From the NCBI GenBank assembly GCA_964525635.1, contig CAZGJX010000003.1, forward strand, positions 39,465 through 103,464: a DNA stretch of 64,000 nt, given 5' to 3'. Position 1 is the stretch's first letter. Every line of letters begins with the position of its first letter. This DNA comes from an uncultured archaeon (lineage in GTDB: Archaea; Asgardarchaeota; Lokiarchaeia; Sigyniarchaeales; SOKP01). Under the pieces are notes generated by a model. The model ran no database searches. It was given only the letters and a program-made list of their open reading frames with translations, and was not told where the DNA came from. Both the position numbers and the translations under genes were made by a program. This document shows positions 17,503-45,357 of the stretch, piece after piece.

Positions 17503-17594
17503 TTTTATTTTATACTAAATTTAAAAAGTGTGGAAAAAAATAATAGAATGGATAAAATAAATATAATTCTATTATAAAAAAAAAATGAGATAAA

Positions 17595-18032
17595 ATGACT
17601 GTTATTAATATTTTATTAGTTGAAGATAATCCTGGTGATGTTAGGTTATTTAAAGAATCATTTAAAGAAAGTGAAATTGAAAATAAACTTCATGTGGTTG
17701 GAGATGGAGTTGAGGCGATGTCATTTTTAAAGAAAGAGGGGAAGTATATAGATAGCCCACGTCCTAACCTTATCCTCTTAGATATTCGAATGCCAAAAAA
17801 AAATGGATATGAAGTCCTTGATGATATTAGAAAAGAAGAATCATTAAGTAATATTCCAGTTGTAATTCTTACTGCTACAGAAGTAAAAGATGAAAGTATT
17901 AAGAATTACTCGAGTGATGTAATTTGTTTTCTTAAAAAACCAGAGAGTATGGATCAATTTATATTAGGTGTACAATCAATCTTCCGCTTTTTATTTTTAT
18001 CAAATACATTTAATAAAGATAAAGAGAAATAG
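17595..18032 (+). CDS. single-domain response regulator (CheY-like receiver)
   Basis: Has ILLVEDNPGD, LILLDIRMPKKNG, VVILTA and FLKKP. Confidence 0.9.
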   Translation: MTVINILLVEDNPGDVRLFKESFKESEIENKLHVVGDGVEAMSFLKKEGKYIDSPRPNLILLDIRMPKKNGYEVLDDIRKEESLSNIPVVILTATEVKDESIKNYSSDVICFLKKPESMDQFILGVQSIFRFLFLSNTFNKDKEK

Positions 18033-18065
18033 ATATAACTATAATTTAAGAAAAAAATCAATAAA

Positions 18066-18506
18066 ATGAATAAAATTGAGATTTTATTAGTTGAAGATAA
18101 TTCAGGAGATATTCGTTTAATAAAAGAAGCATTTAAAGAAACTAAAATCCCAAATAAACTTCATGTGGTGGGAGATGGTTTAGAAGCTATTTCATTTTTA
18201 AGAAATGAAGGTAAATATATGGATGAACAACAACCAGACCTCATTATATTAGATTTAAATTTACCTAAAAAAGATGGATATGAAGTTTTAACCACAATTA
18301 AACAGGATAAATCTTTAAAAAAAATACCTGTTTTAATTCTCTCCGTGTCAGCAGCAGAAGAAGATATAAAGAAATCTTATGAATGTCATGCAAATTGTTT
18401 TATTAAAAAACCAGTTGATATGGATCAATTTATTGATATTATAAAAAGCATTGGTAATTTTTGGTTTGAAATTGTTAAACTACCACCAAAAGAACATATA
18501 AAATAA
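18066..18506 (+). CDS. single-domain response regulator (CheY-like receiver), paralog of 17595-18032
   Basis: Has ILLVEDNSGD, LIILDLNLPKKDG, VLILSVS and FIKKP. It shares long identical nucleotide runs with the upstream paralog. Confidence 0.9.
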   Translation: MNKIEILLVEDNSGDIRLIKEAFKETKIPNKLHVVGDGLEAISFLRNEGKYMDEQQPDLIILDLNLPKKDGYEVLTTIKQDKSLKKIPVLILSVSAAEEDIKKSYECHANCFIKKPVDMDQFIDIIKSIGNFWFEIVKLPPKEHIK

Positions 18507-22130: not shown

Positions 22131-23285
22131 ATGAATATAAGTGGTTTAGTCAGAAAAGAATTTGGTCGATTAAGAAGTGATAAAAGGACTTTAATTCTAT
22201 TATTTGCAATTCCGCTTGTATTAATAATAATATTTGGATTAACTTCAGGAGGGGGTCCTTCAGAATTCTTTCATGCATCAATTATAACAAGAGATGATAT
22301 GGATTCTTCATATCCGTTTCCCCCGATGAGTTCTGAATATGATGAAGTATTTATATCGATTTTTAATGATAATCTTACCTCCTTTGGCCTTGAAAGTTAT
22401 TATAATGTATCAAATGAAGAAGAATATTCTGAAGCCTATATTAATTGTAAAAATTTACTGAAAAAGGAGATTATTGATATTTTTATAGTATTACCAGAAA
22501 ATTTCTCCGAGACCGTCAGGGATAACTTAGACACGCATTTAATTTACTATATAGATGGATCGGATCTACAAGCAGTGAAAGCAATTAATGTTTCAATGTT
22601 AGAGCCTATAGTCCAATTCAAATTAAGAACAGGAAAGATGGTTAATTTTACTATGTTGTTGCCATATTTAGAATTTGAAGTACCTTTTTGGGAATCACAA
22701 GTATTAAATTATGCTTTTGCATTAACAATTCCTTTAATAATTATAGGAACAACAATGAATCTTTCATGTTTATCAATTGTGTCAGAAGGACCTTTACCAA
22801 GAATGCTTATTACTCCTGCTTCAAAAAGATCTATTATACTAAGTAAATTAGTCGCAAATTCATTAATTATGATACTTCAAGCAGGAGAAATTTTTATTGC
22901 AACTGCTATATTTGGTCTTTATAGTTTAGGTTCATTATTTGATTTATTTTTAGTATTTCTTGCAATTGGATTTAGTGGAGTAACTATAGGTATTTTTATA
23001 TCATCAATAAGTAAAACGGATCAACAAGCAAATCAACTCTATATGGTCTTTTTTATTATTATTTTATTATTTTCAGGACAATTTGTAAGTGTTGGGAATC
23101 TTCCTGCCTATATGCAGGCCATTATCTATTCACTTCCTTTAGGACATGGTATACCGCTTACATTTGATATAACATTAAAAGGATTGCCATTAAATCTTAT
23201 AACTTTTTCCAGTATAATATTTATATCTTTGGTATATATACTCTTGGCTTATATCATTTATTTATTTAAAAGAATAGAGGTTTGA
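22131..23285 (+). CDS. ABC-2 type transporter permease
   Basis: Has an N-terminal TM, a large sequon-rich loop, then five C-terminal TM segments with SKTDQQANQ. Confidence 0.7.
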   Translation: MNISGLVRKEFGRLRSDKRTLILLFAIPLVLIIIFGLTSGGGPSEFFHASIITRDDMDSSYPFPPMSSEYDEVFISIFNDNLTSFGLESYYNVSNEEEYSEAYINCKNLLKKEIIDIFIVLPENFSETVRDNLDTHLIYYIDGSDLQAVKAINVSMLEPIVQFKLRTGKMVNFTMLLPYLEFEVPFWESQVLNYAFALTIPLIIIGTTMNLSCLSIVSEGPLPRMLITPASKRSIILSKLVANSLIMILQAGEIFIATAIFGLYSLGSLFDLFLVFLAIGFSGVTIGIFISSISKTDQQANQLYMVFFIIILLFSGQFVSVGNLPAYMQAIIYSLPLGHGIPLTFDITLKGLPLNLITFSSIIFISLVYILLAYIIYLFKRIEV

Positions 23286-24511
23286 AAATGAATAGTGAAA
23301 ATGAATTAAAAGATAAAAAGAATGATCAAGGAGGATTAATTAGAGTTAAGAGTAGCTTATTTAGGATTTTAAAAATGATTAAAAAAGAATTTAGATTATT
23401 AAAAACTGATCCTTGGAATTTAGTAATTGCTATATTAATACCTCCGCTCATTATTATGTTATTTTCTTTTATGACGGGAGAAGCAGGAGAATCACCACCA
23501 TTACCTGTAGTTATTGTTTCAAATGATTCAAATACTTTTATAAATCCAAATAATTACACAGAATCAACATTGGATAGTTATTCCATACCTTACATAAATG
23601 CTGCGAATAAGTCAGAATTGTTAGATCTTAAGGCCGTCTATAACTCAACAAAATTTCCATATTCTATGGAAATTGCAAGAGAAGAGTTACTTAAAAGCAA
23701 AATTGGTTGTATTATTGTTATTCCTGTAGAATTTACGGAATTGTTAGTCTTAGGATATCCCGGAATAATTGAATGTATCCCAGATTCTTCGAGAATTTCT
23801 AAAGTTCAAGATAGTATTAATGCAGTATATGATTCGATCAAGATTTTTGTTGAAGATAATCATTTAACTCCTCAAATTATTTTAAATGGATTTGAAGAAT
23901 TTTCTGTCCCAGAAGAATATAATTTAAAATTTAGCTCTAATATAATACAATTATTACCTCTCATGGTATTTGGGATAGCAAATGTATTGACGATTCTTGT
24001 TATCGTTAAAGAAAATCCTATTTCTAGACTCTTACTAACTCCTGTTAAAAAAACAGAGATACTCATCTCAAAATATTTTACTTATTCGGTCGTATTATTC
24101 TTTCAAAATTTGGCTATAATTCTTGCTACAGTATTTAGTGGATTATATATAAGAGGATCTACTTTCGATCTTTTTGGAGCATTGTATATAATTGGTTATA
24201 CTGGAATAAGTATGGGTCTTTTTATTAGTTCCATTAGTAAAACAAAAACAGAAGCAAATCAATTATTTTTTGCTTCTTTTATAATAATAATCCTTTTAAG
24301 TGGATTATTTGTCCCATTAGGAAGCATGCCCATATATCTAAGTTTATTCGCTCAATTATTGCCTTTATCTCATGCAAATCCCCTAATTAGAAGTGTATTA
24401 TCAAAAGGGAACTCTATTTTCGGATATCATTTCTATATATTATTATTAGTAAGTTTAGCTTTGAATATTATTACATTTTTAATATTTTATAAAAGGAGGT
24501 ATGAAGTATAA
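23282..24511 (+). CDS. ABC-2 type transporter permease (paralog)
   Basis: Same topology as the upstream permease, with SKTKTEANQ. It overlaps the upstream permease stop. Confidence 0.7.
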   Translation: MKMNSENELKDKKNDQGGLIRVKSSLFRILKMIKKEFRLLKTDPWNLVIAILIPPLIIMLFSFMTGEAGESPPLPVVIVSNDSNTFINPNNYTESTLDSYSIPYINAANKSELLDLKAVYNSTKFPYSMEIAREELLKSKIGCIIVIPVEFTELLVLGYPGIIECIPDSSRISKVQDSINAVYDSIKIFVEDNHLTPQIILNGFEEFSVPEEYNLKFSSNIIQLLPLMVFGIANVLTILVIVKENPISRLLLTPVKKTEILISKYFTYSVVLFFQNLAIILATVFSGLYIRGSTFDLFGALYIIGYTGISMGLFISSISKTKTEANQLFFASFIIIILLSGLFVPLGSMPIYLSLFAQLLPLSHANPLIRSVLSKGNSIFGYHFYILLLVSLALNIITFLIFYKRRYEV

Positions 24512-25512
24512 TTCTGGGAAATTTAAATTCTAAAAATATAATCGTCAATGTAAGAAATCTCAAAGTTAACTTTAAAAAAAAAAAAATTATTCATGACGTA
24601 TCCTTTCAAGTCTACAAAGGAGAAATTATTGGATTATTTGGAATATCTGGGGCAGGTAAGACAACTATAATTAGAGTTCTAACTTGCCAAATAAAGGAAA
24701 AAAATTGGAAAGGGATAGTATCAGTAACTAATTTAAATCCTAAAAGAAAAAAGAATCATTCAAAAATACTGAGTAATATAGGATATGTTCCTCAGTTAGA
24801 ATTACTTAATCTATATTATGATTTATCTCCTTTGGTAAATGTTGAAATATTTGCATCTAATTATGGACTAAAAAAAGAAATTGCATTAAAAGCTGCAAAA
24901 GATTTATTTTCAATTTTAGATATCCCAAAAGATACCTGGAAAAATCCATTAGAAAAACTTAGTGGTGGTGAGAAAAAGAGAGTTTCTATGGCTATTGGTT
25001 TAATTCATAAACCTAGTGTATTATTTCTCGATGAGCCAACGACAGGAGTAGATGCAAACAAACGTTATGATATTTTAAATTATCTAAAGATATTAAATAG
25101 AAAATTGGGAACAACTATGTTTTTAATTACACATGATCTAGAAGCAGCTTTAATATGTGATAAAACAGCAATTTTAAGAGAAGGAAAATTATTAGAATTT
25201 GATGAACCACACAATTTAATATCCTCTCTTCCAAGTGAAGGAAAATTAGCAAGATTTATAATAGAGGACTTAAATGAGGATATAATTAATTTAATACAAG
25301 AATTTCCTTATTGTGAGTTTGTAGTTCGCACGGGAAATGATGTATTAGAAGTATTTATGAATGATTTTGAAAAAAATTTTATGGAATTTATCAATTTTTT
25401 ATTTAACAATAAAGTAAAAATAATTTCAATGAGTAGAGATATAGCAAATTTTAGGAGATATTTTCAAATACGAATTCAAGAAGAAGAAAGAAAAATTTAT
25501 GAAAATTTATGA
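24508..25512 (+). CDS. ABC transporter ATP-binding protein (5' end extended beyond the ORF-track start)
   Basis: Walker A GISGAGKTT (about 24640-24666) lies upstream of the track start at 24832 in the same open frame, which contains no ATG/GTG/TTG. LSGGEKKRVSMA and LFLDEPTTGVD lie downstream. An AAGGAGGT SD at 24493-24500 is followed by an in-frame ATA at 24508. Confidence 0.8.
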   Translation: MILGNLNSKNIIVNVRNLKVNFKKKKIIHDVSFQVYKGEIIGLFGISGAGKTTIIRVLTCQIKEKNWKGIVSVTNLNPKRKKNHSKILSNIGYVPQLELLNLYYDLSPLVNVEIFASNYGLKKEIALKAAKDLFSILDIPKDTWKNPLEKLSGGEKKRVSMAIGLIHKPSVLFLDEPTTGVDANKRYDILNYLKILNRKLGTTMFLITHDLEAALICDKTAILREGKLLEFDEPHNLISSLPSEGKLARFIIEDLNEDIINLIQEFPYCEFVVRTGNDVLEVFMNDFEKNFMEFINFLFNNKVKIISMSRDIANFRRYFQIRIQEEERKIYENL

Positions 25513-25538
25513 TTAATTTTACCGAAAGGTGATAAATA

Positions 25539-28500
25539 ATAGAAAGAAAGAAAAAAAGACGATTAATATATATTATATTAATTATTGGTATATTTACAGG
25601 TGAATTTATACTCCAATGGATTATCAATATACCATTTATAGAATATTTAAGTGAAAGTGAGGTAAAAAAGTATAAAGATAATATGGGTTATTTTGCTTAT
25701 ACTCACCAAAATCCTGACAGTGGGCTTTTTGTTGAACCTTCTATCGCTTATAATTATAGAGCAATAGATTCAATTAATTTTTCTGACTCTACTTTTAAAA
25801 ATTCTAATTTAACTAATCCTATTGATAATTCTTATCTTGATGTAGAAAATAGTCAATTTTTCTTGGATTATTTATTTGAGAAGCAAAATTCAGATGGTTC
25901 TTTTTCGGATATTGGAGGAATTGGAAATATGATTTCAACTTATCAAGTTGTTAAAACTATAGATAAATTAAATAGTTCTTATTTAGATACACCAGATAAA
26001 TTGGAAAGAGTTGATAAAATTATTGATTTTATAAATATTTCTATGGGTGAGAATGGTTGGGGCTTTAAAGCTCATCCAATCGCAAATGTTTCAGATATTA
26101 TTTCAACATATTATGCAATAAAACTAGCTAAACGGTTTAATAATTATTCAATATTACAGAATAGTAACATAAGTGTATTTATAAATTCTACTAGGTATTT
26201 AGCTCAAGGAGGTTATGGCCTCACAAGTTATAGTCCCATAGTAACTCCAGAAACTACCTATTTTGGAATAAAAGCTCATCTAGAAATGGATTATAATTTC
26301 ACTTTAGAGGATTTAGTCTTACTTGAAACATTTTTTTTTTTAAGAAGAGATCTTTTAGGGGGATATAAAGACTCTATGACGGGTATAACCAATGTAATAT
26401 CAACATATTATGCACTTGCTTCACAATATCTTCTAAATATACCACTCTCTGATTCATTTGAAGAAGTTACATTAGATTTTATACTTGATTGTCAATTACC
26501 TGATGGAAGTTTTGAATATTATCTTAATGTAATTTTGGATATCCCACGATTTAAATCTGGTTGGGCTGCCATGAAAGCTATTTCTTTATTAGAATATAAT
26601 GCTACAGCACCTCTTAGCGTAGCTAATAGTGTTAAAAGCAAATATTATAATTGGTTATATAAAAATCAAGCAATGAATGGTTTAGTTGGACAAATATCTC
26701 TCCAAACAAATTATTTTGGGGTATTATCTTTACATAACTACGATATTCAGAATTATACTTATTATATTAAGATGAATGAAATCTTAAAATATGCGGATTC
26801 CTGTTACAATCCTAATGATGGTGGTTTTGGCTCTAAACCAAATTCTAATTCAACTATTTTTTCAACTTATTGTGCGATTTTTTTATATAACTTATTTCTC
26901 CCTTATAATATATCTTATCTTCCTAATGCAACAGCAACGAAATTATATTTTAAAACAATTCAAAATGAGGATGGAGGTTATAAAGTAGGTGAAGATATAG
27001 ATGTTGTTATTTCCTTCTTTGGTTCCGTATATGAGCCAATCTTACATTTAATAAATACAAATATCTCTACAGTTATAAGTACATATTGGGCATTAAGTAG
27101 TCTAAATGATCTAGATGCATTAGATATAATCAATACTACTTCTTTACAACATTGGATTTTTTCATGTCAGAATGCAGATGGAGGATATTCATTATTCATT
27201 GGATTTCATTCAGATGTAATTTCAACATATTATGGATTAGAAATTCTTAGATTCTTTAATCTAGAACCCCTTTCTAAAATAGCTGCGCTAGAATTCCTTA
27301 AAAAAGCACAATCAGAAGATGGAAGTTTCATTCTAATACCATATCTTTCGTTATTATTTGATTTACCCACTTCCTTTATTGGTAATTATTTAGGCTCAAT
27401 TTCCTTATATTATTATAGATCACAACCCCAAAACTTACCTAATCTAGCTAAGTGGTTTAGAAATTGTTTCAGTAATATTACAGGGGGAGTTGGAGATTAT
27501 CCTTTTTTTGGAGGGGATCTTAGAAATACTCCTTATGGATTACTTATAATTGATCGTATTAGATTTGATCAAGCTTTTGATCCGTTACCATGGACTCGAC
27601 TGATTTTTTGGATAATGATTTCAGAAATTATAGTACTATTGTTAATTGTGATGCTTAATATGGTTTCATATGTAAACCTATCTGTAGTTAGAATACTAAA
27701 ATTAAAATTAGGTATAGGAGACAAATTAAATGTTGAATATTTAAAAAGATATCCAGCAATATATTGTGAAAATTTAAATATCTTTGTAGGTAAAAAGCTA
27801 ATTGTTGATGGTGTATCTTTAGAATTAAATCATGGAAAAATATTAGGCGTATTAGGAGAAAGTGGAGCAGGAAAATCGACTTTTATAAAAGCTTTGTTAG
27901 GTATGAGAAAATATAAAGGTAAATGTGAAGTTTATGGGATGGATGCACGGAAAAACAGAAAGAAATTTAGACCTGTTTTTGGATATGTCCCGCAAGACTT
28001 AGGTAAAATTTATTCCAATTTTACTACTCTACAAAATTTAATCTATTTTGGAAGTCAATACGGTCTTTCTGAAAAACAAATAATTAGTAGAGCAAAAAGA
28101 TTATTAAGAAGCTTAGAGATTGAAGATAAAATAAATGAACCTGTAAAAACACTATCAGGAGGTCAAAAAAGAAGAGTTAGTATTGCAATGGCTTTAATTC
28201 ATACACCAATCTTTTGTATATTGGATGAACCTACATCTGGCTTAGATCCTGTAGTTAGAGAAAATCTATGGCTTGCACTTACTAAGATAAATGAAAGATT
28301 TAATACTACTCTTCTGGTTATTTCTCATTATCCAGAGGAATCAAGATTTTGTAATAAAGTCGTAGTATTTGGTAGAAAAAGAGGAATGATAGATTTTGGC
28401 AATCCAAAGGATTTATTAGCTCAATTACCTGGAAAAGGAAGAACTATTGAATTATCTTTTAATGATTTATATGAAAATGGAGTTCAACGTTTAGAATCAA

Positions 28501-28697
28501 TAATAGGAATTGAAAAAGCTCTTGAAAATAAAGTAGGGAAGGATTTTATAATATTAACAGATTTGAATTTAAATGAAACTAAAAATAGAATTGAAATGGA
28601 ATTCGGTAAAAACTCAATATCAGAATTGAAGCAATCTGATGCTAAAATGGAAGAATATTTTAGGTATAAAGCACTAGAAATTCAGGATTTAATTTAA
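25539..28697 (+). CDS. fusion protein: N-terminal signal anchor, prenyltransferase/terpene-cyclase-like alpha/alpha-toroid repeats, TM helix, C-terminal ABC ATPase
   Basis: At least 9 repeats of the Q..DG(G/S)F...(I/V)STYYAL type are present. The TM is WTRLIFWIMISEIIVLLLIVMLNMV. The ATPase has Walker A GESGAGKST, LSGGQKRRVS and ILDEPTSGLD. The first ATG is at 25683, but the open frame upstream encodes KKKRRLIYIILIIGIFTG. Confidence 0.75.
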   Translation: MERKKKRRLIYIILIIGIFTGEFILQWIINIPFIEYLSESEVKKYKDNMGYFAYTHQNPDSGLFVEPSIAYNYRAIDSINFSDSTFKNSNLTNPIDNSYLDVENSQFFLDYLFEKQNSDGSFSDIGGIGNMISTYQVVKTIDKLNSSYLDTPDKLERVDKIIDFINISMGENGWGFKAHPIANVSDIISTYYAIKLAKRFNNYSILQNSNISVFINSTRYLAQGGYGLTSYSPIVTPETTYFGIKAHLEMDYNFTLEDLVLLETFFFLRRDLLGGYKDSMTGITNVISTYYALASQYLLNIPLSDSFEEVTLDFILDCQLPDGSFEYYLNVILDIPRFKSGWAAMKAISLLEYNATAPLSVANSVKSKYYNWLYKNQAMNGLVGQISLQTNYFGVLSLHNYDIQNYTYYIKMNEILKYADSCYNPNDGGFGSKPNSNSTIFSTYCAIFLYNLFLPYNISYLPNATATKLYFKTIQNEDGGYKVGEDIDVVISFFGSVYEPILHLINTNISTVISTYWALSSLNDLDALDIINTTSLQHWIFSCQNADGGYSLFIGFHSDVISTYYGLEILRFFNLEPLSKIAALEFLKKAQSEDGSFILIPYLSLLFDLPTSFIGNYLGSISLYYYRSQPQNLPNLAKWFRNCFSNITGGVGDYPFFGGDLRNTPYGLLIIDRIRFDQAFDPLPWTRLIFWIMISEIIVLLLIVMLNMVSYVNLSVVRILKLKLGIGDKLNVEYLKRYPAIYCENLNIFVGKKLIVDGVSLELNHGKILGVLGESGAGKSTFIKALLGMRKYKGKCEVYGMDARKNRKKFRPVFGYVPQDLGKIYSNFTTLQNLIYFGSQYGLSEKQIISRAKRLLRSLEIEDKINEPVKTLSGGQKRRVSIAMALIHTPIFCILDEPTSGLDPVVRENLWLALTKINERFNTTLLVISHYPEESRFCNKVVVFGRKRGMIDFGNPKDLLAQLPGKGRTIELSFNDLYENGVQRLESIIGIEKALENKVGKDFIILTDLNLNETKNRIEMEFGKNSISELKQSDAKMEEYFRYKALEIQDLI

Positions 28698-28720: not shown

Positions 28721-29440
28721 TTATTTAAATCGCTCAATTAATCCTTTATAAATTAGATAAAAACATATTATTGATGAGAGTGCTGTAATATTCATAATTA
28801 TTCTTAACAATTCGATATTTAGATAATTAATAAGGAATTCTGATAAAAATATTGCTAATAATCCAAAAACTCCCAAATAAAAAATTCGAAAATGTTCTTT
28901 TAATTTTTCATTTTCCATAGCATTGTATATTTCTTTTATAGTTCTCAATAAAGGAATAATCGAAATAAGAAGGACACAAATTATTATAAATAGGAAGAAA
29001 TAAATATTAAGGACTATGTATCCTGACTTAAAGGTTATTTTATCAAGAATAGCTGCAAAAGTCATACCTAATATTAAAGATACTGCATAAATCTTTAGAT
29101 AGTTGTTAATTTGAGACTTTTGAAAAGTTATCGATGATTTAATAATTATTTTATTTACTATATATAAAAATCCAAAAGCATAACAATTAAAAAAAGCAGA
29201 AATAATGTAGAAAATGATTAGTATAATTTCAAATACACCAACTATTAATAAAGTAAAATATACAATCATTGCAATACTCCCTAATGCAATTGCTATAAAA
29301 AACCAGGAAAAATATAAATTTAATTGCTCATCTTTAGATTTTAATATTTTATAGCTAAATAATAAAAAGAAACTAACTAAAGCTAACTGCATACAATATG
29401 TTAGTACTATATCATAAAGAGAGAATATTTCATTAATCAT
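28721..29440 (-). CDS. polytopic membrane protein (about 6-7 hydrophobic segments), unknown function
   Basis: A 239-aa ORF that is almost entirely hydrophobic helices separated by short K/N-rich loops. Confidence 0.5.
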   Translation of the reverse strand: MINEIFSLYDIVLTYCMQLALVSFFLLFSYKILKSKDEQLNLYFSWFFIAIALGSIAMIVYFTLLIVGVFEIILIIFYIISAFFNCYAFGFLYIVNKIIIKSSITFQKSQINNYLKIYAVSLILGMTFAAILDKITFKSGYIVLNIYFFLFIIICVLLISIIPLLRTIKEIYNAMENEKLKEHFRIFYLGVFGLLAIFLSEFLINYLNIELLRIIMNITALSSIICFYLIYKGLIERFK

Positions 29441-29644
29441 ATGTTATTTTGAAAAGATTTTGAATTTTTTTTATGAATATTTTAATTATTATATAAACTT
29501 AGATATAAAAGTTATATTTCTATTTTTGGGAAAAAATTATTTTTTATTTTGTAATCCTAAACTATCACAATAACTCATTCTTTTAATTTATTTTAATATA
29601 TTAGGATTAATAATTTTATAATTTTCTTTTTGTACCAAAGAGAT

Positions 29645-30103
29645 TTATTTAGAGAAAAGCAATGATATTTTATCCTCTATATTATTCTTAGATATTCCAA
29701 GAATATTATCAATAATATTTTTGAATTGGATAAATTGTGTGGAATATGAAAAATCATGACCATGATAATTTACTTTAAATTTATGTAAAATGTTTTCTAA
29801 TAGAGGATTAATTTTTCTTTTTACATTTTTATCGAATTTTTCATTCTTATCTAATATAAGATAGGCAAAGATATCTGTTATCTCTGAATTAATAGTATTA
29901 ATTTTTTCCTTTTTAAAAATAAAATTATATTTAGTACTTTCAAAAGACTCTATTGGCGAAATAAGGGTTTCAGCAAAATTTAATAAACAAGAAAGTAATG
30001 CACATTTATGAATTAAATCCTCATCCTTTTCACTAGGATTAATATAATTAGCACTTATTATAGGAATACCCCCGATAATAATACCTGCTTCATAAATTTG
30101 CAT
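29645..30103 (-). CDS. small soluble protein with a longin/roadblock-like N-terminal pattern
   Basis: MQIYEAGIIIGGIPIISANY..DEDLIHKCALLSCLLNFAETL..YNFIFKK..IFAYLILD follows the same beta-beta-alpha-beta-beta order as the C-termini of the TPR proteins. Confidence 0.45.
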   Translation of the reverse strand: MQIYEAGIIIGGIPIISANYINPSEKDEDLIHKCALLSCLLNFAETLISPIESFESTKYNFIFKKEKINTINSEITDIFAYLILDKNEKFDKNVKRKINPLLENILHKFKVNYHGHDFSYSTQFIQFKNIIDNILGISKNNIEDKISLLFSK

Positions 30104-30382
30104 TTTTATTATATATTTCTTTAATTTAAATATATATTTATAAAAATTTTAACCCGATATAATAGTAAATTCCTCTATATTTATATTTTTTTTAGGAAAA
30201 AAAAAATATTAAATTATCTTTTTATGGTACTTGATATTATTAAATTGGGAAATAACCATTTATTCCAGTAATTCATATGAATTAACATTAAAGTTAATAA
30301 ATCTAAAAATATATCAAATTCATAAGCATTTATAAGGATAATTTATTCTTAAGGTATTTATAAAATAACGGTTTTGTGAAGA

Positions 30383-32095
30383 TTGAATAACTATAGAAAA
30401 GAAGAATTAGAATTAATTAGAAAAAAAATAATAGATGCTATTCGATTTTCTGAGCGTTATTGGATGATTTATAAGAAAAATACTTTTGGATTTTCAACAA
30501 TATTAGATTTGAATTATAAAAAGAGTTACATCGAAGTATTACTATTTTCGAATTATGATGTCTTGCATGAAGGAGTACCTTTAATAGAAATAAACACACC
30601 TATAGAAACAGAACTTGATTTTAATACAATTATTGTTGATCCTGATTTTGATGATGATGGACTAATAAGTCCTATAAAAATAATTGAACGAATTAATATA
30701 TTAATTAATAAGGAATATCAATATCATATTGATTTTTTAAATAAAGAAATTGAATTAATGAACGAAGAATTTGAGAATTATCCATTTAAAGATATCCCCT
30801 ATTTTAGGAAAATTCGAATTTATTTCCCTGATTTTTATATTAAATTGAAAATTAATTTTGAGCTTTATCCATCAAAACCAACATTTTACTTTTCAAAATT
30901 TCTTTCAAGAATAATAAAATTAGTAGAATTTTTAAATATTGATCCTATTAAGAATTGGAATGAATTAGAACCTCCTCATTTAGTAGATATATTAAAATAT
31001 TTAATTAAACTTATTATTAAATCCCTTAAAATTAAGAATTATTACAAAAATTCTCAATATTTATTATTAGATAATTTTTTGTTAGAAAAAGATATAGATA
31101 AAATATCTTTTAAAATTCACAGAGGACAATCAATTGGAATATTATATGAGGGAACATCTGAAGAAAATAATGATCAAACTAGCATGAACATATTATTTAA
31201 AAGTATTATGGGGGAAATAAAAAATTTTTCAGGAGTTATAGATATATTTGGTAAATTTATTCAGCTGGTAGATAGAAAAGATCTAACAGGTATTATTAAT
31301 ATATCTAATTCAATAGATTTCAAAAAAGAAAATATGAAAATTAAGAAAGCAATTAAATATGGTATTAAATTAAAACCTAAATTAACACCCTATAGCACAG
31401 TTATATTAGGTAACCTACAAAATAAGGATAATATATTATTAAGAAAATCATGGCTTTTAAAAAATCCTATTTTTAAAAGTTTCTCAATTCTTAAGAAATT
31501 TAATAAAAAAAGAGAAATTATCAATAAAACTTTAGAAATAACAGGATTATCAAGTAAACTAAATTTAAAAGTATTTCAATTAAAGAAATTTGATCTTTTA
31601 TTATTATCTATAGCAAGGGCTCTTGTTCAATTACCAAAGATAATAATTTTTCCGATTCCTCAAGGCATCTTAAATAGATTGGAATATGAAAGATTAAATA
31701 ATTATTTAGAAATTATAAAAAAAAAGTTCCATATTGCACTTATAATTCATGGACCCGAGATAGTTGTTTCTAAATGTGACAAAATTTTAACTATTACAGG
31801 GAAGAAAGCTGATTCTGGAACAATGAAAGAATTAATTAAAAAAATACCACAATCAGGAGAATTAATTTCAATTGAATTAAATTATCCAAAAGAGGAAGAG
31901 TTAAATGAATTATTTCAATTAGAATCGGTTATAGTCCTTGAAGAGAGAAAATATGAAAAATATAAATTATTTCCAAAAGAAGATCCAGATAAATTAATTA
32001 GAAAAGTAATCCGTATATTTGGAGCTGATTTATATAGTTTTAAACGTTATAAAGCGTCTCTACATGAATTTGTTGAATTTTTAAGAATTTCATAA
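30383..32095 (+). CDS. UBC/RWD-like domain fused to a degenerate (catalytically dead) ABC-type ATPase domain
   Basis: The C-terminal 340 aa are collinear with ABC-2-type ATPases, but Walker A reads ILYEGTSEENNDQTS, the signature reads QLKKFD and Walker B reads IIIFPIP. The N-terminal part contains KLKINFELYPSKPTFYFSK...W...PPHLVDILKYLIKLI (YPxxxP-type). Confidence 0.55.
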   Translation: MNNYRKEELELIRKKIIDAIRFSERYWMIYKKNTFGFSTILDLNYKKSYIEVLLFSNYDVLHEGVPLIEINTPIETELDFNTIIVDPDFDDDGLISPIKIIERINILINKEYQYHIDFLNKEIELMNEEFENYPFKDIPYFRKIRIYFPDFYIKLKINFELYPSKPTFYFSKFLSRIIKLVEFLNIDPIKNWNELEPPHLVDILKYLIKLIIKSLKIKNYYKNSQYLLLDNFLLEKDIDKISFKIHRGQSIGILYEGTSEENNDQTSMNILFKSIMGEIKNFSGVIDIFGKFIQLVDRKDLTGIINISNSIDFKKENMKIKKAIKYGIKLKPKLTPYSTVILGNLQNKDNILLRKSWLLKNPIFKSFSILKKFNKKREIINKTLEITGLSSKLNLKVFQLKKFDLLLLSIARALVQLPKIIIFPIPQGILNRLEYERLNNYLEIIKKKFHIALIIHGPEIVVSKCDKILTITGKKADSGTMKELIKKIPQSGELISIELNYPKEEELNELFQLESVIVLEERKYEKYKLFPKEDPDKLIRKVIRIFGADLYSFKRYKASLHEFVEFLRIS

Positions 32096-32118
32096 TTAAA
32101 TTAAAAAGAGGAAGTTAT

Positions 32119-32943
32119 ATGATTAAGAATATCTATATTTTAAGCAGAAATGGGATGTTGCTATATTCAAAAAATTTTATTGAACAAAAATACGATGATA
32201 ATTTATTAATTGGATTCTTTACGTCAGTAGAAAATTTTAGTCGAGAAGCTTTAGAAAGTATTGTAAAATTTATAGATCTTGGTGTAGATAATAAATTAAT
32301 CCTTAAACCAAAACCAGATGAAAAGATCTTTGGTGCAGCTATAGTAAGTTCTAAGGATAACAATATATTAGTGGGTAAGATACTTGATAACATATTGCAA
32401 GATTTTATTGATGATTTTTCACCTGATTATAATCTTGATAGAAAAAGTAAAAGTAAAATGGATAAAAATATAGAGGACAATCTAAAAAAACGGACATCTT
32501 CATCATTAAGAATTAGAATATTAAAAACTTGGTTAATATTAGGACCACTTGGATTATTACTTACAATTATTAACATAATGGCGACAGAATATTTTATTTC
32601 ATCCAGACAATCTGAATATGGATCTTTTTTTTATATGGAAGATATTCTATTAAGCATAATACCACAAGTAGTTTTAATTTCTTTAGCTGAACTTGTTTTA
32701 GTATTTGGTGTTGCTAATTTCATATCTGGATATATAATATTAGACCTCAAGCTAGCTGCTATAAATGTACTTCTATATTTTGGTTATATTCTTATCTTTT
32801 ACTTTATATCTGTAAAACCTGTCTTAGCTCTGATTATTCTCACGTTTTTTCCATTCATTATAGTCGCATCTTTATTGGCAGCATATCTTGGTTATGTTTT
32901 AGCGCTTCAGAGAATAACACTTAGAGTAAAAGAAATAGATTAA
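32119..32943 (+). CDS. longin/SNARE-like (AP-sigma-like) domain protein with a C-terminal multi-TM anchor
   Basis: MIKNIYILSRNGMLLYSKNF..LLIGFFTSVENFSREAL..IFGAAIVSS..ILDNILQDFIDDF parallels the sigma-adaptin/longin pattern. Four hydrophobic segments follow. An AGAGGA SD sits 7 nt upstream. Confidence 0.55.
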   Translation: MIKNIYILSRNGMLLYSKNFIEQKYDDNLLIGFFTSVENFSREALESIVKFIDLGVDNKLILKPKPDEKIFGAAIVSSKDNNILVGKILDNILQDFIDDFSPDYNLDRKSKSKMDKNIEDNLKKRTSSSLRIRILKTWLILGPLGLLLTIINIMATEYFISSRQSEYGSFFYMEDILLSIIPQVVLISLAELVLVFGVANFISGYIILDLKLAAINVLLYFGYILIFYFISVKPVLALIILTFFPFIIVASLLAAYLGYVLALQRITLRVKEID

Positions 32944-36052: not shown

Positions 36053-36822
36053 TTAAACGTCTCGTGTTCTAAATCTTAGATAAGCAAGAATAATACTAGG
36101 AATTAAATAACATAGCAACATTACTACTACCCAATCGACTTTTAATATAATAACAATTTCTTCAGAGGTAACTTCACCTCCAAAAATAGATTGTCCGACT
36201 AATTCAGAATAAAAAGGGAAATAATAGGGGCTATTGACAAAAGCAAGGAGTATTCCAAAAGCAGCTCCTAATATAATCAGTGTAATAAAAGCCATAGTCA
36301 TAGCTTGAGAACCAGATCGGAAAATGGTACTATGTAATATATATATAGCCGCATAAGTGATTCCAGATAAGCAAGAAAGCCCAAACCATATAAATAATTC
36401 AGTTGGAATTTGTTGATAATATATAATTGAATAGATCATTAATTCAATCAAGCAAGGTCCAATCCATATTAAAATAATTGTTAAAACAGCAAGAGTTTTA
36501 CCAATAAAAAAGTTTGTTCTCCCTGTTTTAGTAAAATTTGTAAGTACTGTTCGTTTATCAAACTCATCTGTTAAAATTCCTCCTGCAAAAAATAGGGAAA
36601 TAATTAATATTATCATCCCATAATTTTGGGTTATGGAGGATAAAAACTCTTTCGGATTTGGTGGAAGAAAAAAACCAATGAGAATCCCATATAAATTTAT
36701 AATTAATATTCCTAAAAAGAGAAGATGTAAATATCTTTTCTTTTTAGAGATAATTCAAACTTATAAACTTCAGATATTAATCTTGGATTAGTTCCTCTTT
36801 TGATTTCTATATCAACGGACAT
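36053..36822 (-). pseudogene. ABC-2 type permease disrupted by a frameshift
   Basis: ATG at 36822 gives MSVDIEIKRGTNPRLISEVYKFELSLK.. The frame then changes in an A-rich run near 36745-36755 to ..KKKRYLHLLFLGILIINLYGILIGFF..MIILIISLFF.. (track ORF 36053-36616). Confidence 0.7.
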
Positions 36823-41494: not shown

Positions 41495-44089
41495 ATGAAT
41501 ATATTATTTGAAAAGATCTTAAAATATAAATTTGAGATCATTTGTTTTACTATATTCTTCTATTTTTTATTATATTTAAGGGTCATTACTCCTTATCACG
41601 ATACTTACTTAGAATGGAAATTTGATCCTTATCACGATACTTACTTAGAATGGAAATTTGATTGGGATTTTTATAGACTTATGTACAACGATATAACAAT
41701 TGTCTTTAACCGGGAGAACCCAGAGGTTATAGCTCCTTTTTGCTATAGGATTTTAACACCACTTGTAGTAAGATTATTTCCTTTTGAAGACATGACTTTA
41801 AACTGGGGATTATATAGTTTTATTTTTATTTATTTAACGGGTATAGTGCTTTATTTTATATTTAGAATTTATTTCAATAAATATATCTCAATGGTGGGAC
41901 TTATTTTATTCTGTTATTTGTGCTTTACCTCTCCAACGATTCCTTCATTTGGTGATAGTATATATGATTATTATTTTATGCAATACTATTTTTACATGGT
42001 TTTTCATGTTGATCCTTTAGCGTATTTTCTTTTAATGTTATGTTTCTATAGTATTTTAAAATCAAATAAAAAATTATTTTGTATTTCTCTCTTATTAGGT
42101 ATATTAACAAAAGAATCTATTCTATTCACAATTCCGGTGTATTTAATCCATGAATATTTAAAGAGAAGAAAAATCAAGAATCGAGAAAAATCAATCTATA
42201 ATTTTCTAAACGGTTTTAAACCCATAGTACCAACTATATTAATCTTTATTTTAATGAGAATTATAATTACTCCAAAATCTTCCTTAGAAGAAGTCTATTG
42301 GGATGAATACTATCAAGGAAATGAATATATGTCATTAGGAATGATAGAAGTGTTATTAAAGTATTTAATTTCCGATTATCATGATTTTGGCTGGGGTATA
42401 TTGGATTATTCAATTCTTTTTTGGAGTCCACTATTATTTATTTTATTTTGTTTTAATAAAAAGAAAGATGTCTTCAATTGGTTTAAATTATATAGTGTTT
42501 TTATAGCTGCTATATATTTTCAAATGATGATAGCAGGTGAAAGATCTCGTGCTCTCTTTTTTGGTTTTTTCCCAATACTTTTATTAGCGGTTTCTGGAGT
42601 AAATAATATTTATGAAATTATCCAAAAAAAAATCAATTATCGAAAAGCAAAAAAAGAGAATAATAACTTACCAATTAAAGAGGTTTTAATAAAAAAAGAA
42701 GAATTAATCCCATTGGATCCTATTTCACAATCCCAATTATTTTTTAAGCATCCTATTCTTCCAGAGGTACTTTATGGTGCTGTTATTTTAAGAGGGAAGT
42801 TGAAATTGGATGTATTAAATAATTCATATAAAAAAGTTATGGAAAAAAATCCTCATCTTCACGATATTTTAATTAAAAAGCGTGTGGGTGTGTTTTATAA
42901 AATATTTAGAAAACCTATTCAACCTCTCCCAATAGGAGAAATTAATTTGGTAAATTCAAATCTTCCATATCGGGAAAGATTACTTGAACATTTTAAATCT
43001 TCATTATCTAAGCATATTGATCCATTTAGAGAACCGACTTTTTATGCATATTATGTAAAATTAGATGAAAATATATTTGCTATTGCTTACATTTCTCATC
43101 ATACTACATTGGATGGAATTGGATTTGTAAATTTTTATCAGGAATTATTTTCATATTATTATAAAGAAATCTATAAAAAAGAAAGTGAGTGGTCGAAGTC
43201 AGTAGGATTTATAAGCCTTAGAGATAAAAAAAATGAGGGTAATATAAAAATGGTCCCTTTAATTAAGCCACGATTTTCAATTAAAAAAACTATAAAAACA
43301 ATAACAGTATTTTTATCATTTAGAAAAGCCCGAAAATTCACAATAAACCGTCCTTTATCTGAACTAAGCCATGCAAACCTTTTAAAAATCGAAAAAAATA
43401 CTTTAAAGAAAATAAAACAATATGGAAAATCACTTAATTCTACTGTAAATGATGTTTTATTAGCATTATTATTTAGAACACTCTTTATTATATTTCCTGA
43501 GATAGAGAATAAAAAAAAAACCCATTATACAATAAGCGTACCAATTAATATTAAGAAAAAAATATCACCTAATAAAAGGATTATAAATAACATGACAAGC
43601 CTTTTTATTAGCATAGAAGGTTCTCAATTTAGAAATGTGGAAAAGATACTTAAAATAATAAACACAACCAAGAAAAAACAAATTGAAATGGGATTAGATA
43701 TTTATCAATATCATGTTTTACGCATATTATTAAAAATCACTCAATTATTTCCCTTTAATCTAAGTCGGAAATTATTTCATAAGTTATTTCAATTCCCATT
43801 TACGTCATTATTTAGTAATTTTGGGATATTATGGCCTGAAATTGTTGATGGAGGCGTTACGGGGAAAAGTTTCTTAACAAAAATTGGAGACGAACTTGAA
43901 ATATTAGATGTAGATTTGGGTTATTCTCTACTTCCCCATATTGGACATGAATTTGTTACTTTTACTTATCGAGAGCAACTTCATATTTATCTTTCTACTT
44001 ATGATGCATTTTTTTCTAAAGAACAATCAAAAAGATTTATAGATGTATTCCATCAAGAAATAGAAAAATTATCAAATAAAAAAAGCTAA
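41495..44089 (+). CDS. fusion of a polytopic membrane domain with a condensation/WS-DGAT-like acyltransferase domain
   Basis: The N-terminal ~390 aa are hydrophobic. The C-terminal half carries ISHHTTLDGIGF (HHxxxDG) and TVNDVLLALLFRTL. Confidence 0.6.
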   Translation: MNILFEKILKYKFEIICFTIFFYFLLYLRVITPYHDTYLEWKFDPYHDTYLEWKFDWDFYRLMYNDITIVFNRENPEVIAPFCYRILTPLVVRLFPFEDMTLNWGLYSFIFIYLTGIVLYFIFRIYFNKYISMVGLILFCYLCFTSPTIPSFGDSIYDYYFMQYYFYMVFHVDPLAYFLLMLCFYSILKSNKKLFCISLLLGILTKESILFTIPVYLIHEYLKRRKIKNREKSIYNFLNGFKPIVPTILIFILMRIIITPKSSLEEVYWDEYYQGNEYMSLGMIEVLLKYLISDYHDFGWGILDYSILFWSPLLFILFCFNKKKDVFNWFKLYSVFIAAIYFQMMIAGERSRALFFGFFPILLLAVSGVNNIYEIIQKKINYRKAKKENNNLPIKEVLIKKEELIPLDPISQSQLFFKHPILPEVLYGAVILRGKLKLDVLNNSYKKVMEKNPHLHDILIKKRVGVFYKIFRKPIQPLPIGEINLVNSNLPYRERLLEHFKSSLSKHIDPFREPTFYAYYVKLDENIFAIAYISHHTTLDGIGFVNFYQELFSYYYKEIYKKESEWSKSVGFISLRDKKNEGNIKMVPLIKPRFSIKKTIKTITVFLSFRKARKFTINRPLSELSHANLLKIEKNTLKKIKQYGKSLNSTVNDVLLALLFRTLFIIFPEIENKKKTHYTISVPINIKKKISPNKRIINNMTSLFISIEGSQFRNVEKILKIINTTKKKQIEMGLDIYQYHVLRILLKITQLFPFNLSRKLFHKLFQFPFTSLFSNFGILWPEIVDGGVTGKSFLTKIGDELEILDVDLGYSLLPHIGHEFVTFTYREQLHIYLSTYDAFFSKEQSKRFIDVFHQEIEKLSNKKS
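41591..41662 (+). repeat. perfect 36-bp tandem duplication (2 copies), in frame
   Basis: ccttatcacgatacttacttagaatggaaatttgat occurs at 41591-41626 and again at 41627-41662, encoding PYHDTYLEWKFD twice. Confidence 0.95.
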
Positions 44090-45222
44090 TTTTTTTCTAA
44101 ATAGTCAGGTATATCATAATTCCATTCCTTTAAAGCAAAATCCCAATATTTCTTAACCTTTTCTATTGTAGAAATACTATATACATATTTATTCTTTTTA
44201 TAATTTGCAGTTTCTTTAAGATAGTCTTTAAAAAGAGGTTTAATATCTTCAAATCCATTCAATTTGAACTTTTGATAGATTTTTTTTAATTGCTTAATTG
44301 GATTCTCTTCTAAATCTTTAAAGGTAAGTTCAATGTAATTTTCTTCTGGAATTAAATCTTTCTCTTTTAAGAAAGTAAGCATCATATCTTTATATATCGT
44401 TATTATGTTTTTATCAATTTCTTTTTTGGAAATTGGTTGCAAATTGAGCCATGGTAATACAGAATCATATAATTTATGAGTTGACATATAAATTTCAAAA
44501 GGATTTCTATGAATATTGATAAACTTTGCGTTGGGGAATAATTCCAAGAGAATTTTTATACGAACAGTATTAGCAGGGTTCTTTATAACGAGAGACTTCC
44601 TTCTAATGTAGTATTTCGCTTTCTTTAATAACTCAAGATAAACTCTTTTCCATTCTTCCTTCACTTTGGATGGAACTTTTTTTAAACATGTGTATTTTAT
44701 ATAATTCTCTATCATTTGTTGAGGAAAATACCAACTAACATAAAATCCATAAGGACATAAACTTCCTAAAGCAAATTCATCTTCTTGTGGCTCATCAACT
44801 CCAATTTTTACATTATCTTGGGGACGTGTATCTGGCATAAAAACTTTCATCATATTTCTGAAAATTTTAAGATATATAAATGATTTTGGAAAAAAAGCTT
44901 GAGTCATTGTGACGTACCCAAATTGAGGGTCTTTACATAGTAAATTATGAAGATGAGTTGTACCACTCCTCCAATGACCTAAAATAATAACAGGATCATC
45001 TGGTAATTTAACTTTCTCAACAATTTTCTTTAATTTCTTAGATTCAAGATAACGAACTGGTATTCCAATCATATTTATAAGAACAATCCCTACTAATCTT
45101 GGAAAATATTTTTTAGATATCGTTCGATTCATGACAAGGATTCTTATTAAATTTCTCAATGAACCTCCTATAGCAGGATTTATTGATCTCTTCTTTTTCT
45201 GTTTCTTATCATTTGAAACCAT
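44086..45222 (-). CDS. PAPS-dependent sulfotransferase family protein
   Basis: Has the 5'-PSB motif GHWRSGTTHLHNLL and a 3'-PB-like IHRNPFEIYMS. Its stop overlaps the stop of the 864-aa gene by 4 nt (convergent). Confidence 0.75.
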   Translation of the reverse strand: MVSNDKKQKKKRSINPAIGGSLRNLIRILVMNRTISKKYFPRLVGIVLINMIGIPVRYLESKKLKKIVEKVKLPDDPVIILGHWRSGTTHLHNLLCKDPQFGYVTMTQAFFPKSFIYLKIFRNMMKVFMPDTRPQDNVKIGVDEPQEDEFALGSLCPYGFYVSWYFPQQMIENYIKYTCLKKVPSKVKEEWKRVYLELLKKAKYYIRRKSLVIKNPANTVRIKILLELFPNAKFINIHRNPFEIYMSTHKLYDSVLPWLNLQPISKKEIDKNIITIYKDMMLTFLKEKDLIPEENYIELTFKDLEENPIKQLKKIYQKFKLNGFEDIKPLFKDYLKETANYKKNKYVYSISTIEKVKKYWDFALKEWNYDIPDYLEKN

Positions 45223-45357
45223 TATCCCTAACCTCTTATAAAGTTTTAATATCTAACCAGTTAGTAAGGTAAATCTTTTTTTTGTATTAAATCTATAGCT
45301 TATTCGAATATCTTGGTAAACTTAAACTTTTTAAAAATAAAAAATTTTTAAAATTAT

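Follow-up and report, generated by a model that had tools for sequence, protein, structure and literature searches.

Organization of the locus

The stretch of DNA considered here is a 64,000-nucleotide segment of contig CAZGJX010000003.1 (assembly GCA_964525635.1, positions 39,465 to 103,464) from an uncultured archaeon of the Asgard order Sigyniarchaeales; at its full length it is referred to below as the window. Its G+C content is approximately 26%, and the homologues of its proteins come almost exclusively from metagenome-assembled genomes (MAGs) of Lokiarchaeota/Promethearchaeota. A first-pass annotation had singled out four consecutive open reading frames (ORFs), here termed P1 to P4, which form two divergently oriented pairs, and had proposed that they constitute a membrane-associated module with no described prokaryotic counterpart. 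All four ORFs lie exactly where they had been placed. The divergent spacer is likewise real, with a length of 279 bp, and the 23-nt gap between P3 and P4 contains an AGAGGA hexamer 7 nt before the P4 ATG (Table 1). In source annotations such proteins are listed as hypothetical, as 'membrane protein of unknown function' or as a generic 'ABC-type ... ATPase'. The neighbourhood comparison described below changes the proposed reading: P3 and P4 are the last two genes, and the non-catalytic tail, of a six-gene ABC-2-type (ABCA-like) transporter operon of Lokiarchaeota-type Asgard archaea.

Table 1. Genes, domains and sequence elements of the transporter operon and its insertion, in positions of the window
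Feature	Position	Strand	Description	Basis
perm1	22131..23285	+	ABC-2 family permease, 384 aa; first gene of operon	Pfam ABC2_membrane_3 2.5e-21
perm2	23282..24511	+	ABC-2 family permease, 409 aa	Pfam ABC2_membrane_3 1.3e-20
ABCs	24505..25512	+	Canonical ABC ATPase, stop-to-stop frame of 335 codons	Motifs intact
PTABC	25536..28697	+	Transmembrane (TM) segment, toroid, TM segment, active ABC ATPase, C-terminal domain	Pfam, PDB, hydropathy
P1	28721..29440	-	Polytopic membrane protein, 239 aa	Lineage-specific insertion
P2	29645..30103	-	Soluble protein, 152 aa	Lineage-specific insertion
Spacer	30104..30382	.	AT-rich, 279 bp, between divergent P2 and P3	Sequence
P3	30383..32095	+	570 aa, TTG start	ORF
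P3 domain A	30383..30670	+	Residues 1-96: helix, three strands, short helix, one strand	AlphaFold2 (AF2) model
P3 domain B	30671..31048	+	Residues 97-222: long helix and putative non-catalytic UBC/RWD-superfamily domain	AF2 model, profile
P3 pseudo-NBD	31049..31852	+	Residues 223-490: degenerate nucleotide-binding domain (NBD)	ABC ATPase fold
P3 C-terminal domain	31853..32095	+	Residues 491-570 and stop: alpha/beta domain, as after ABC-2/ABCA NBDs	
AGAGGA	32106..32111	+	Shine-Dalgarno-like hexamer, 7 nt before P4 ATG	Sequence
P4	32119..32943	+	274 aa	ORF
P4 longin domain	32119..32418	+	Residues 1-100: predicted cytosolic longin domain (bb-a-bbb-a)	AF2 model, Foldseek
P4 TM bundle	32506..32934	+	Residues 130-272: four long TM helices	AF2 model, hydropathy

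P3 and P4 terminate a conserved six-gene operon

Gene neighbourhoods were compared across 77 genome loci retrieved with the P3 alignment, onto which the window proteins were mapped by tblastn. The conserved order, on a single strand, is perm1-perm2-ABC-PTABC-P3-P4. Of the 77 loci, 71 have P4 after P3, the remaining six contigs ending at or inside P3, and 74 have PTABC before P3, the other three contigs beginning at or inside P3. Gaps between P3 and P4 range from 2 to 45 nt; those between PTABC and P3, estimated by extrapolating tblastn match coordinates to residue 1, run in most loci from an overlap up to +33 nt. The second active ATPase gene, ABCs, is found upstream of PTABC, with both permease genes upstream of ABCs in turn, and perm1 and perm2 were both present in 46 of the 49 loci with sufficient upstream sequence. 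A very distant P3-like protein (P0211; E 5e-18 with the N-terminal profile of P3) is encoded within six genes of identical order, and its downstream neighbour is P4-like (23% identity; hhalign probability 99.96% to P4).

The proteins encoded upstream of P3 identify the class of transporter. The two permeases are paralogous (hhalign E 2e-93), and ABCs carries an intact Walker A (GISGAGKTT), signature (LSGGEKKR), Walker B (LFLDEPT) and H-loop (ITHD). All ATP-site motifs are kept in both ABCs and PTABC, in the window as well as in the family consensus. ABC-2 permeases are therefore encoded together with DrrA-like ATPases that have intact motifs, which is the composition of an ABC-2 (type V) operon. 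PTABC itself combines an active NBD (Pfam ABC_tran 1e-27) with an alpha-alpha toroid of the prenyltransferase type (Prenyltrans 1.4e-27), of some 600 residues and presumably extracellular, which matched Rab GGTase beta among PDB sequences (1.3e-11). Read from its first ATG (25683-28697, 1004 aa), it contains one hydrophobic segment, at residues 635-672; its orthologues open with a K/R-rich segment and a hydrophobic helix, and the window carries a matching peptide in frame from 25536.

Two observations concern the ATPase genes themselves. Conserved N-terminal parts of ABCs (24505-24832, with the Walker A region) and PTABC (25536-25683, with the signal-anchor TM segment) are in frame upstream of the first ATG/GTG/TTG, which in ABCs is found only at 24832, downstream of the Walker A motif; either a non-canonical start codon (perhaps ATA or ATT) is used or these genes are shortened by standard gene calling. 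Several relatives have two ORFs in place of one for the small ABC ATPase (L018, 4363-5404; L052, 5757-6792; L084, 14518-15549), lying in different frames about 50 nt apart in L018. Such a pattern could stem from a frameshift that recurs, from a real division of the gene or from faulty assembly.

P1 and P2 interrupt the operon in a narrow clade

P1 has approximately seven to eight hydrophobic segments, in keeping with its first description as a multi-TM protein. It gave no match in Pfam, NCBIfam, PADLOC or PHROG, and a relationship to the permeases or to P4 was discarded since hhalign detected no similarity. Homologues occur only in L064 (37% identity) and L084 (43% identity). For P2, 5.8 billion proteins yielded just eight close clusters. 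Together, P1 and P2 are restricted to the window, L064 and L084/L085, and are missing from about 70 other loci that have P3-P4; a further MAG (KGD57) has at least P2 beside P3-P4, as judged from locus tags KGD57_08430/35/40 only. Wherever they could be mapped, they lie between PTABC and P3 on the opposite strand.

The first-pass annotation had also regarded P2 as a longin/roadblock-like protein. None of its eight members matches a Pfam longin or Robl family, and no PDB sequence match was obtained. When P2 was compared with the P4 longin family by hhalign, which is a weak test here, the alignment was collinear over approximately 93 columns but not significant (E 0.1-0.2, probability <1%). Searches of PADLOC and PHROGs with P2 gave nothing meaningful, so that neither library lends support to a defence-system or phage origin of the insertion.

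These data bear on the proposal that P1-P4 form a self-contained regulatory or assembly module, expressed from the shared divergent spacer, in which P2 and P4 would act as cooperating longin platforms. The adjacency of the four genes in the window and in L064 and L084/L085, to which the locus tags suggest that KGD57 may be added, speaks for such a module, as does the collinearity of the P2-P4 alignment. However, the neighbourhood comparison confines the divergent arrangement to a narrow clade, the many loci with P3-P4 lack both P1 and P2, and a P2 homologue with 60% identity (P0190) lies in an unrelated neighbourhood. Moreover, the junction between PTABC and P3 is occupied in L078 (5869-8412) by a different, unrelated set of three genes encoding a cupin-like protein, a PadR-like regulator and an alpha/beta hydrolase, indicating that this junction has been invaded at least twice. 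We consider the four-gene module very unlikely, and the synteny data already largely refute it. Judging from its distribution among genomes, the P1-P2 pair is a recent, lineage-specific local insertion that would not be needed for the module. The divergent spacer and promoter region between P2 and P3 are a by-product of the insertion, since elsewhere PTABC and P3 abut.

P3 joins a putative UBC-fold domain to a degenerate ABC ATPase

The AF2 model of P3 (mean predicted local distance difference test, pLDDT, 85.6; predicted template modelling score 0.79) contains an ABC ATPase fold in its C-terminal two thirds. In Foldseek searches 1150 PDB chains were recovered at E<=1e-3; the C-terminal two thirds superpose on the NBD and R domain of ABCA4, ABCA3, ABCA7 and ABCA1 over approximately 410 columns (ABCA4, E 7e-14) and on TM_1403 (4yer) over 355 columns (7e-13). 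A profile built from 63 homologues matched PDB NBD sequences by hmmsearch, with MacB as the best (1.1e-10), and 21 of the 25 top matches in a viral library are named ABC transporters. Each of these comparisons places P3 among proteins with the NBD fold of ABC ATPases. Weak NCBIfam ABC ATPase matches cover residues ~360-560, the best being GldA (2.5e-6), whose model is matched to position 293 of 301 and hence into the C-terminal domain. No Pfam or NCBIfam family covers P3 at its curated threshold.

The catalytic motifs of this domain are lost. A regular-expression scan of 84 full-length close members and 15 distant members found no Walker A (GxxGxGK[ST]), LSGGQ signature or Walker B (hhhhDE) in any of the 99 proteins. 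A variable acidic stretch occupies the Walker A site, the family consensus reads 's.Lt.LefllFSIaRAL' and 'IIMFsIP' at the signature and Walker B positions, and the Q-loop Gln is also missing; residues 348-370 are disordered. Only the H-loop His450 is mostly kept (at least 90% of 63 sequences). The P3 NBD is closer to that of PTABC (30% identity, 6e-9) than to that of ABCs (1e-4), and P3 is an ancient paralogue of a PTABC-type NBD. The loss of every catalytic motif might suggest a functionless, decaying relic of a duplicated ATPase gene. Against this, the reading frame is full length in the 84 close clusters and in distant relatives, the model is confident, and 19 invariant and about 70 nearly invariant columns were counted in the 63-sequence alignment, whose members share 41-70% identity with the window protein. 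Furthermore, the motif loss is common to the whole family and must thus be ancient. A relic is barely conceivable on this evidence; P3 is an old, maintained pseudo-enzyme.

The N-terminal 222 residues of P3 are modelled as two alpha/beta units linked by a long helix. Domain A, the first unit, is the best-conserved part of the protein (mean pairwise column identity 0.61), yet no relatives of it were detected outside the family, and a PDB sequence search with the N-terminal profile gave no matches. Domain B consists of H97-129, E131-135, E138-147, E152-158, E167-170, H172-184 and H200-215 (pLDDT ~90), an arrangement that corresponds, in topology only, to the UBC/RWD beta-meander between N- and C-terminal helices. 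The marks of the UBC fold listed in PMC6601020 were used for comparison. The motif YP[LS]xP, of the YPxxxP type, is present, with Y162 in at least 90% of sequences and P163 and P166 invariant, as is a W192...P-P-H199 helix. No conserved Cys was found in columns 130-222 of the 63-sequence alignment, and domain B is on this ground classed as non-catalytic. We also considered domain A as a duplicate of domain B, which would make a double RWD; once the shared helix was removed there was no similarity between them, topology alone being alike.

Sequence evidence for the nature of domain B came from an exhaustive search of 1.84 billion representatives with the N-terminal profile (residues 1-232). Approximately 50 distant proteins matched at profile positions ~117-215 with whole-library E values of 1e-12 to 1e-3. 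Pfam domains in the 51 distant matches include UQ_con in 16, RWD in 12, UBC_like in three, BRE in two and UFC1 in one, and RING and JAB domains are also carried by such proteins. Some of the matched stretches coincide with these Pfam domains; the strongest ones are neighbouring repeats. The closest outside relatives of domain B are four proteins of Promethearchaeota of ~600-690 aa (P0217, P0218, P0221 and P0223), with three or four tandem UBC/RWD-like domains; P0218 has in addition a weak RING-finger match. From the profile matches and the model topology we conclude that domain B has an affinity to the UBC superfamily and is probably a non-catalytic UBC-fold domain of the RWD/UEV-like kind. 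The original description of P3 as an RWD-like, pseudo-ABC protein is thus supported by the fold matches, by the uniform motif loss and by the distant UBC/RWD profile matches.

P4 places a longin-like domain on four TM helices

P4 was modelled with AF2 from 46 homologues (pLDDT 80.5). Residues 1-100 contain the elements E2-9, E14-19, H27-47, E51-55, E58-65, E70-77 and H82-100, which is the order expected of a longin fold. All 21 top Foldseek matches in the PDB at E<=1e-3 are longin domains: the best is zeta-COP (3tjz_C, E 4.5e-5), and others are AP-1/2/3/4 sigma, mu and delta N-termini and TRAPP Bet5/Trs23. Ragulator and an Asgard roadblock protein rank lower. At the level of sequence, sub-threshold Pfam matches were found in the family to Sybindin (13 of 46 members, best 0.0077), Intu_longin_1 (8 of 46), Longin (one) and Clat_adaptor_s (one, E 0.068). 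Window P4 had no longin-type Pfam match at E<=0.1, and neither in Pfam nor in NCBIfam was there an above-threshold match to a curated longin-type or other family. The fold evidence thus supports a longin assignment for residues 1-100, membership of a curated family being not established; within that limit the sigma-adaptin/longin pattern followed by four TM helices, as first described, is borne out by AF2 and Foldseek. As had been stated of them, neither P3 nor P4 has a recognizable enzyme active site.

The longin domain is the best-conserved part of P4 (identity 0.64). It is followed by an amphipathic helix at residues 108-125 and then by the TM bundle, in which N200, G204, P245 and G258 are invariant. 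P4 differs from the AP sigma and zeta-COP small subunits, which are stand-alone proteins of ~140-180 aa, in its length of 274 aa, its four TM helices and its ABC-component neighbours, and no gene for a large adaptin or COPI subunit was present among the neighbours scanned. It also departs from FtsX/MacB-type (type VII) proteins in having a TM1-TM2 loop of only about five residues in the model. The possibility that the bundle is a degenerate or split ABC-2 permease was discarded, because hhalign against perm1 and perm2 returned nothing and no family member matches ABC2 families; one distant P4-like protein shows a weak ABC2_membrane_3 match (2e-4).

A proposed role in the transporter and its alternatives

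The explanation that we favour, with moderate confidence, is that P3 and P4 are non-catalytic terminal or accessory subunits of this ABC-2-type transporter. The P3 pseudo-NBD would dock on an active NBD, and PTABC is the likeliest protein to supply it, since the two genes abut or overlap and the PTABC NBD is the closest relative of the P3 NBD. P4 would sit within the membrane part of the complex and contribute helices, and P3 domains A and B together with the P4 longin domain would form a cytosolic platform that either regulates the ATPase cycle or couples and reports it to a cytosolic partner. As a whole, the transporter would probably either serve in export or, by way of the toroid domain, act in mechanotransduction outside the cytoplasm. 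Tight and overlapping gene junctions suggest co-assembly of the products, and the highest conservation in P3 and P4 falls in the predicted cytosolic interaction domains.

Several points weigh against this assignment. P3 lacks both signature and Walker A, so that no ATP site in a PTABC:P3 dimer would be fully canonical, and other roles for P3 are possible. The P4 bundle shows no homology to perm1 or perm2 by hhalign and has no obvious coupling helix. Pfam shows no direct RWD or UQ_con match in any of the 63 P3 members. Within the window, 1.7 kb separate P3-P4 from PTABC, and the pair must be transcribed from a promoter of its own. Finally, three loci (L018, L019 and L052) keep ABCs-PTABC-P3-P4 with the ABC-2 permease genes missing from the 5-7 kb upstream, which in L052 are almost devoid of long ORFs; the tail genes may accordingly not depend on perm1 and perm2.

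The permease-less loci would be accommodated if the operon encoded two machines, perm1-perm2-ABCs forming an ordinary exporter and PTABC-P3-P4 a separate ABC-like mechanotransducer. By analogy with MacB, FtsEX or LolCDE, an active NBD paired with a pseudo-NBD would transmit ATP-driven movement through the two TM helices of PTABC and the four of P4 to the toroid. The competing possibility is a catalytic ABCs-PTABC heterodimer seated on perm1/perm2. PTABC, P3 and P4 are indeed the most tightly linked trio, PTABC has a TM-extracytoplasmic domain-TM layout, P4 resembles FtsX and MacB in possessing four TM helices, and MacB heads the PDB sequence matches of the P3 profile. However, the extracytoplasmic domain is on PTABC instead of linking TM1 to TM2 in the four-TM protein, the NBD class by fold is ABCA/ABC-2, P4 has no FtsX-family Pfam match, and a PTABC:P3 pair would be left with no complete ATP site. 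On balance we hold this arrangement to be unlikely, although it deserves to be kept in view.

The typical partners of longin domains are small GTPases or further longin/roadblock domains, and UBC/RWD domains bind ubiquitin-like proteins or act as scaffolds. These properties raise the alternative that P3-P4 act as an independent module in signalling or trafficking, for instance as a membrane receptor that recognizes a small GTPase or a ubiquitin-like modifier, and are merely co-transcribed with the transporter. The detachment of P3-P4 from PTABC in the window, which on the gene layout would extend to transcription, fits such independence, and in L083 an Arf/Ras-like small GTPase gene (16088-16576) lies ~4 kb downstream of the P4-like gene. 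L068 and L077 are the other loci of this kind. A conserved small GTPase partner was nevertheless rejected as a candidate, for such genes are within reach in just three of ~80 loci and none is present in the window. In addition, the full P3 NBD and C-terminal domain are under purifying selection, a constraint that would be difficult to understand if P3 had no ABC partner, and the overlap of PTABC and P3 in most genomes argues for stoichiometric co-assembly. An independent module is thus distinctly improbable.

A role as transporter subunits could be extended to a sensory one. P3-P4 might be an Asgard 'transceptor' adaptor, in which the membrane longin protein and the tandem RWD-like/pseudo-NBD scaffold read the conformation of the ABC transporter and signal it to the cytosol, where small GTPases, TPR-longin proteins or ubiquitin-like modifiers, for instance, might serve as partners. 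We attach little credence to this idea; were it true, the pair would be a prokaryotic forerunner of the eukaryotic longin/roadblock and RWD scaffolds found on transporters or cargo (Ragulator-SLC38A9, GATOR2 and adaptor sigma/mu).

Other genes of the window

Two TPR proteins (10105-12309 and 12482-14677) had been put forward as possible partners of the P1-P4 cluster. Their C-terminal ~130 residues have no Pfam domain; compared with the P4 longin family they gave an hhalign probability of 67% (E 5e-5), and both sides have in common a motif of the first helix, (I/L)xGF(I/F)(S/T)x(I/V)xxFxxExxxS. On these sequence comparisons the C-termini are plausibly longin-like. The suggested kinship to P4 is therefore moderately supported, but nothing was found to tie the TPR proteins functionally to the operon.

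Further genes lie outside these subjects. Upstream of the transporter operon, 16000-18506 holds the gene for a PAS/histidine kinase and, after it, genes for two stand-alone response-regulator receiver proteins. A 187-aa ORF at 36053-36616 on the minus strand matches only the C-terminal part of ABC-2 membrane models (ABC2_membrane_2, 6.5e-6) and may be a fragment or a short paralogue. The region 41495-46659 is a small-molecule modification cluster, unusual for an Asgard genome, in which an 864-aa protein with a condensation domain of the non-ribosomal peptide synthetase type stands beside a sulfotransferase and an arylsulfotransferase/NHL-repeat protein. At 7084-9855 on the minus strand is a 923-aa protein with three DUF4379 treble-clef zinc-finger stretches and a thioredoxin-like segment.

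Significance

Asgard genomes encode many longin/roadblock and UBC-like 'eukaryotic signature' domains, whose cellular roles are largely unknown. Here, two of them have become lasting parts of an ABC-2 transporter operon, a machine that is widely conserved and in other respects prokaryotic. The operon offers a concrete biochemical setting for the study of Asgard longin and RWD-like domains. The result also counsels caution in inferences from eukaryotic signature proteins (ESPs), as longin/RWD-type domains can belong to transporters and are not proof of vesicle trafficking. In one survey 130 clusters (asCOGs) of the Roadblock/LC7 superfamily were counted, and Asgard archaea are well known for shuffling ESP domains (10.1101/2020.10.19.343400).

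Searches of annotations, domain libraries, solved structures and the literature found no instance of three architectures: UBC/RWD-like domains joined to a fully degenerate NBD, a longin domain joined to four TM helices, and a TM helix, prenyltransferase-like toroid, second TM helix and NBD in one chain. Full-text literature searches likewise returned no described counterpart of the six-gene operon or of its domain fusions. We rate the system as an ABC-2 transporter with unprecedented non-catalytic subunits, and not as a categorically new system.

Comparison with known systems

The closest known systems are the ABC-2/type V exporters in which a C-terminal regulatory domain comes after the NBD, represented by T. 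maritima TM_1403 (PDB 4yer), DrrA/NatA/GldA and ABCA1/3/4/7. The operon has in common with them its ABC2_membrane_3 permeases, DrrA/GldA-like ATPases with intact motifs and a P3 whose C-terminal two thirds superpose on the ABCA NBD and R domain and on TM_1403, and the large extracellular domain of PTABC between its TM1 and TM2 recalls the ABCA layout. Unlike these exporters, it has a third NBD paralogue that lacks ATP-site motifs and is fused to UBC/RWD-like domains, an extra four-TM subunit with a longin domain, and an ATPase that carries a toroid ectodomain and has only two TM helices; all three features are absent from the solved structures matched and from the literature searched. An active NBD paired with a diverged paralogue is also known from heterodimeric transporters with one degenerate ATP site such as TM287/288 and BmrCD. 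There, however, the degenerate partner still binds ATP and keeps its Walker A, whereas P3 has lost Walker A, Q-loop, signature and Walker B. Type VII systems (MacB, FtsEX, LolCDE and BceAB) likewise combine a cytoplasmic ATPase, a four-TM partner and a large extracytoplasmic domain, and include the top PDB sequence match of the P3 profile, MacB; in the operon, by contrast, the ectodomain is on the ATPase-bearing chain, the permeases are ABC-2 and not FtsX-like, and the best fold matches of the P3 NBD and C-terminal domain are ABCA transporters.

As for the putative eukaryotic-signature domains, P3 domain B resembles RWD/UEV domains, which occur in tandem in FANCL, CENP-O/P and Knl1, in its helix-flanked beta-meander, its YPxxP motif and its lack of a catalytic Cys. 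The W...PPH helix takes a position equivalent to the E2 'W-S-P' helix, and, as in tandem RWD forms, a second alpha/beta unit of similar topology precedes domain B. What sets P3 apart is the fusion to an ABC pseudo-NBD, which was not found in anything searched. Residues 1-100 of P4 form the same sandwich as the longins of AP sigma, zeta-COP, mu/delta N-termini and TRAPP (Foldseek E 4.5e-5 to 1e-3, probability 1.00), at an identity of 14-22% and with no Pfam match at threshold; in contrast to these coat and tether components, the P4 domain precedes four TM helices on the same chain, and its gene is part of a transporter operon. Compared with Ragulator-Rag-SLC38A9 and GATOR2, homology stops at the domain superfamilies and no GTPase is conserved near the operon. 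The likeness to these assemblies is one of analogy, in that non-catalytic longin/roadblock and RWD domains would in each case be stationed at a membrane transporter.

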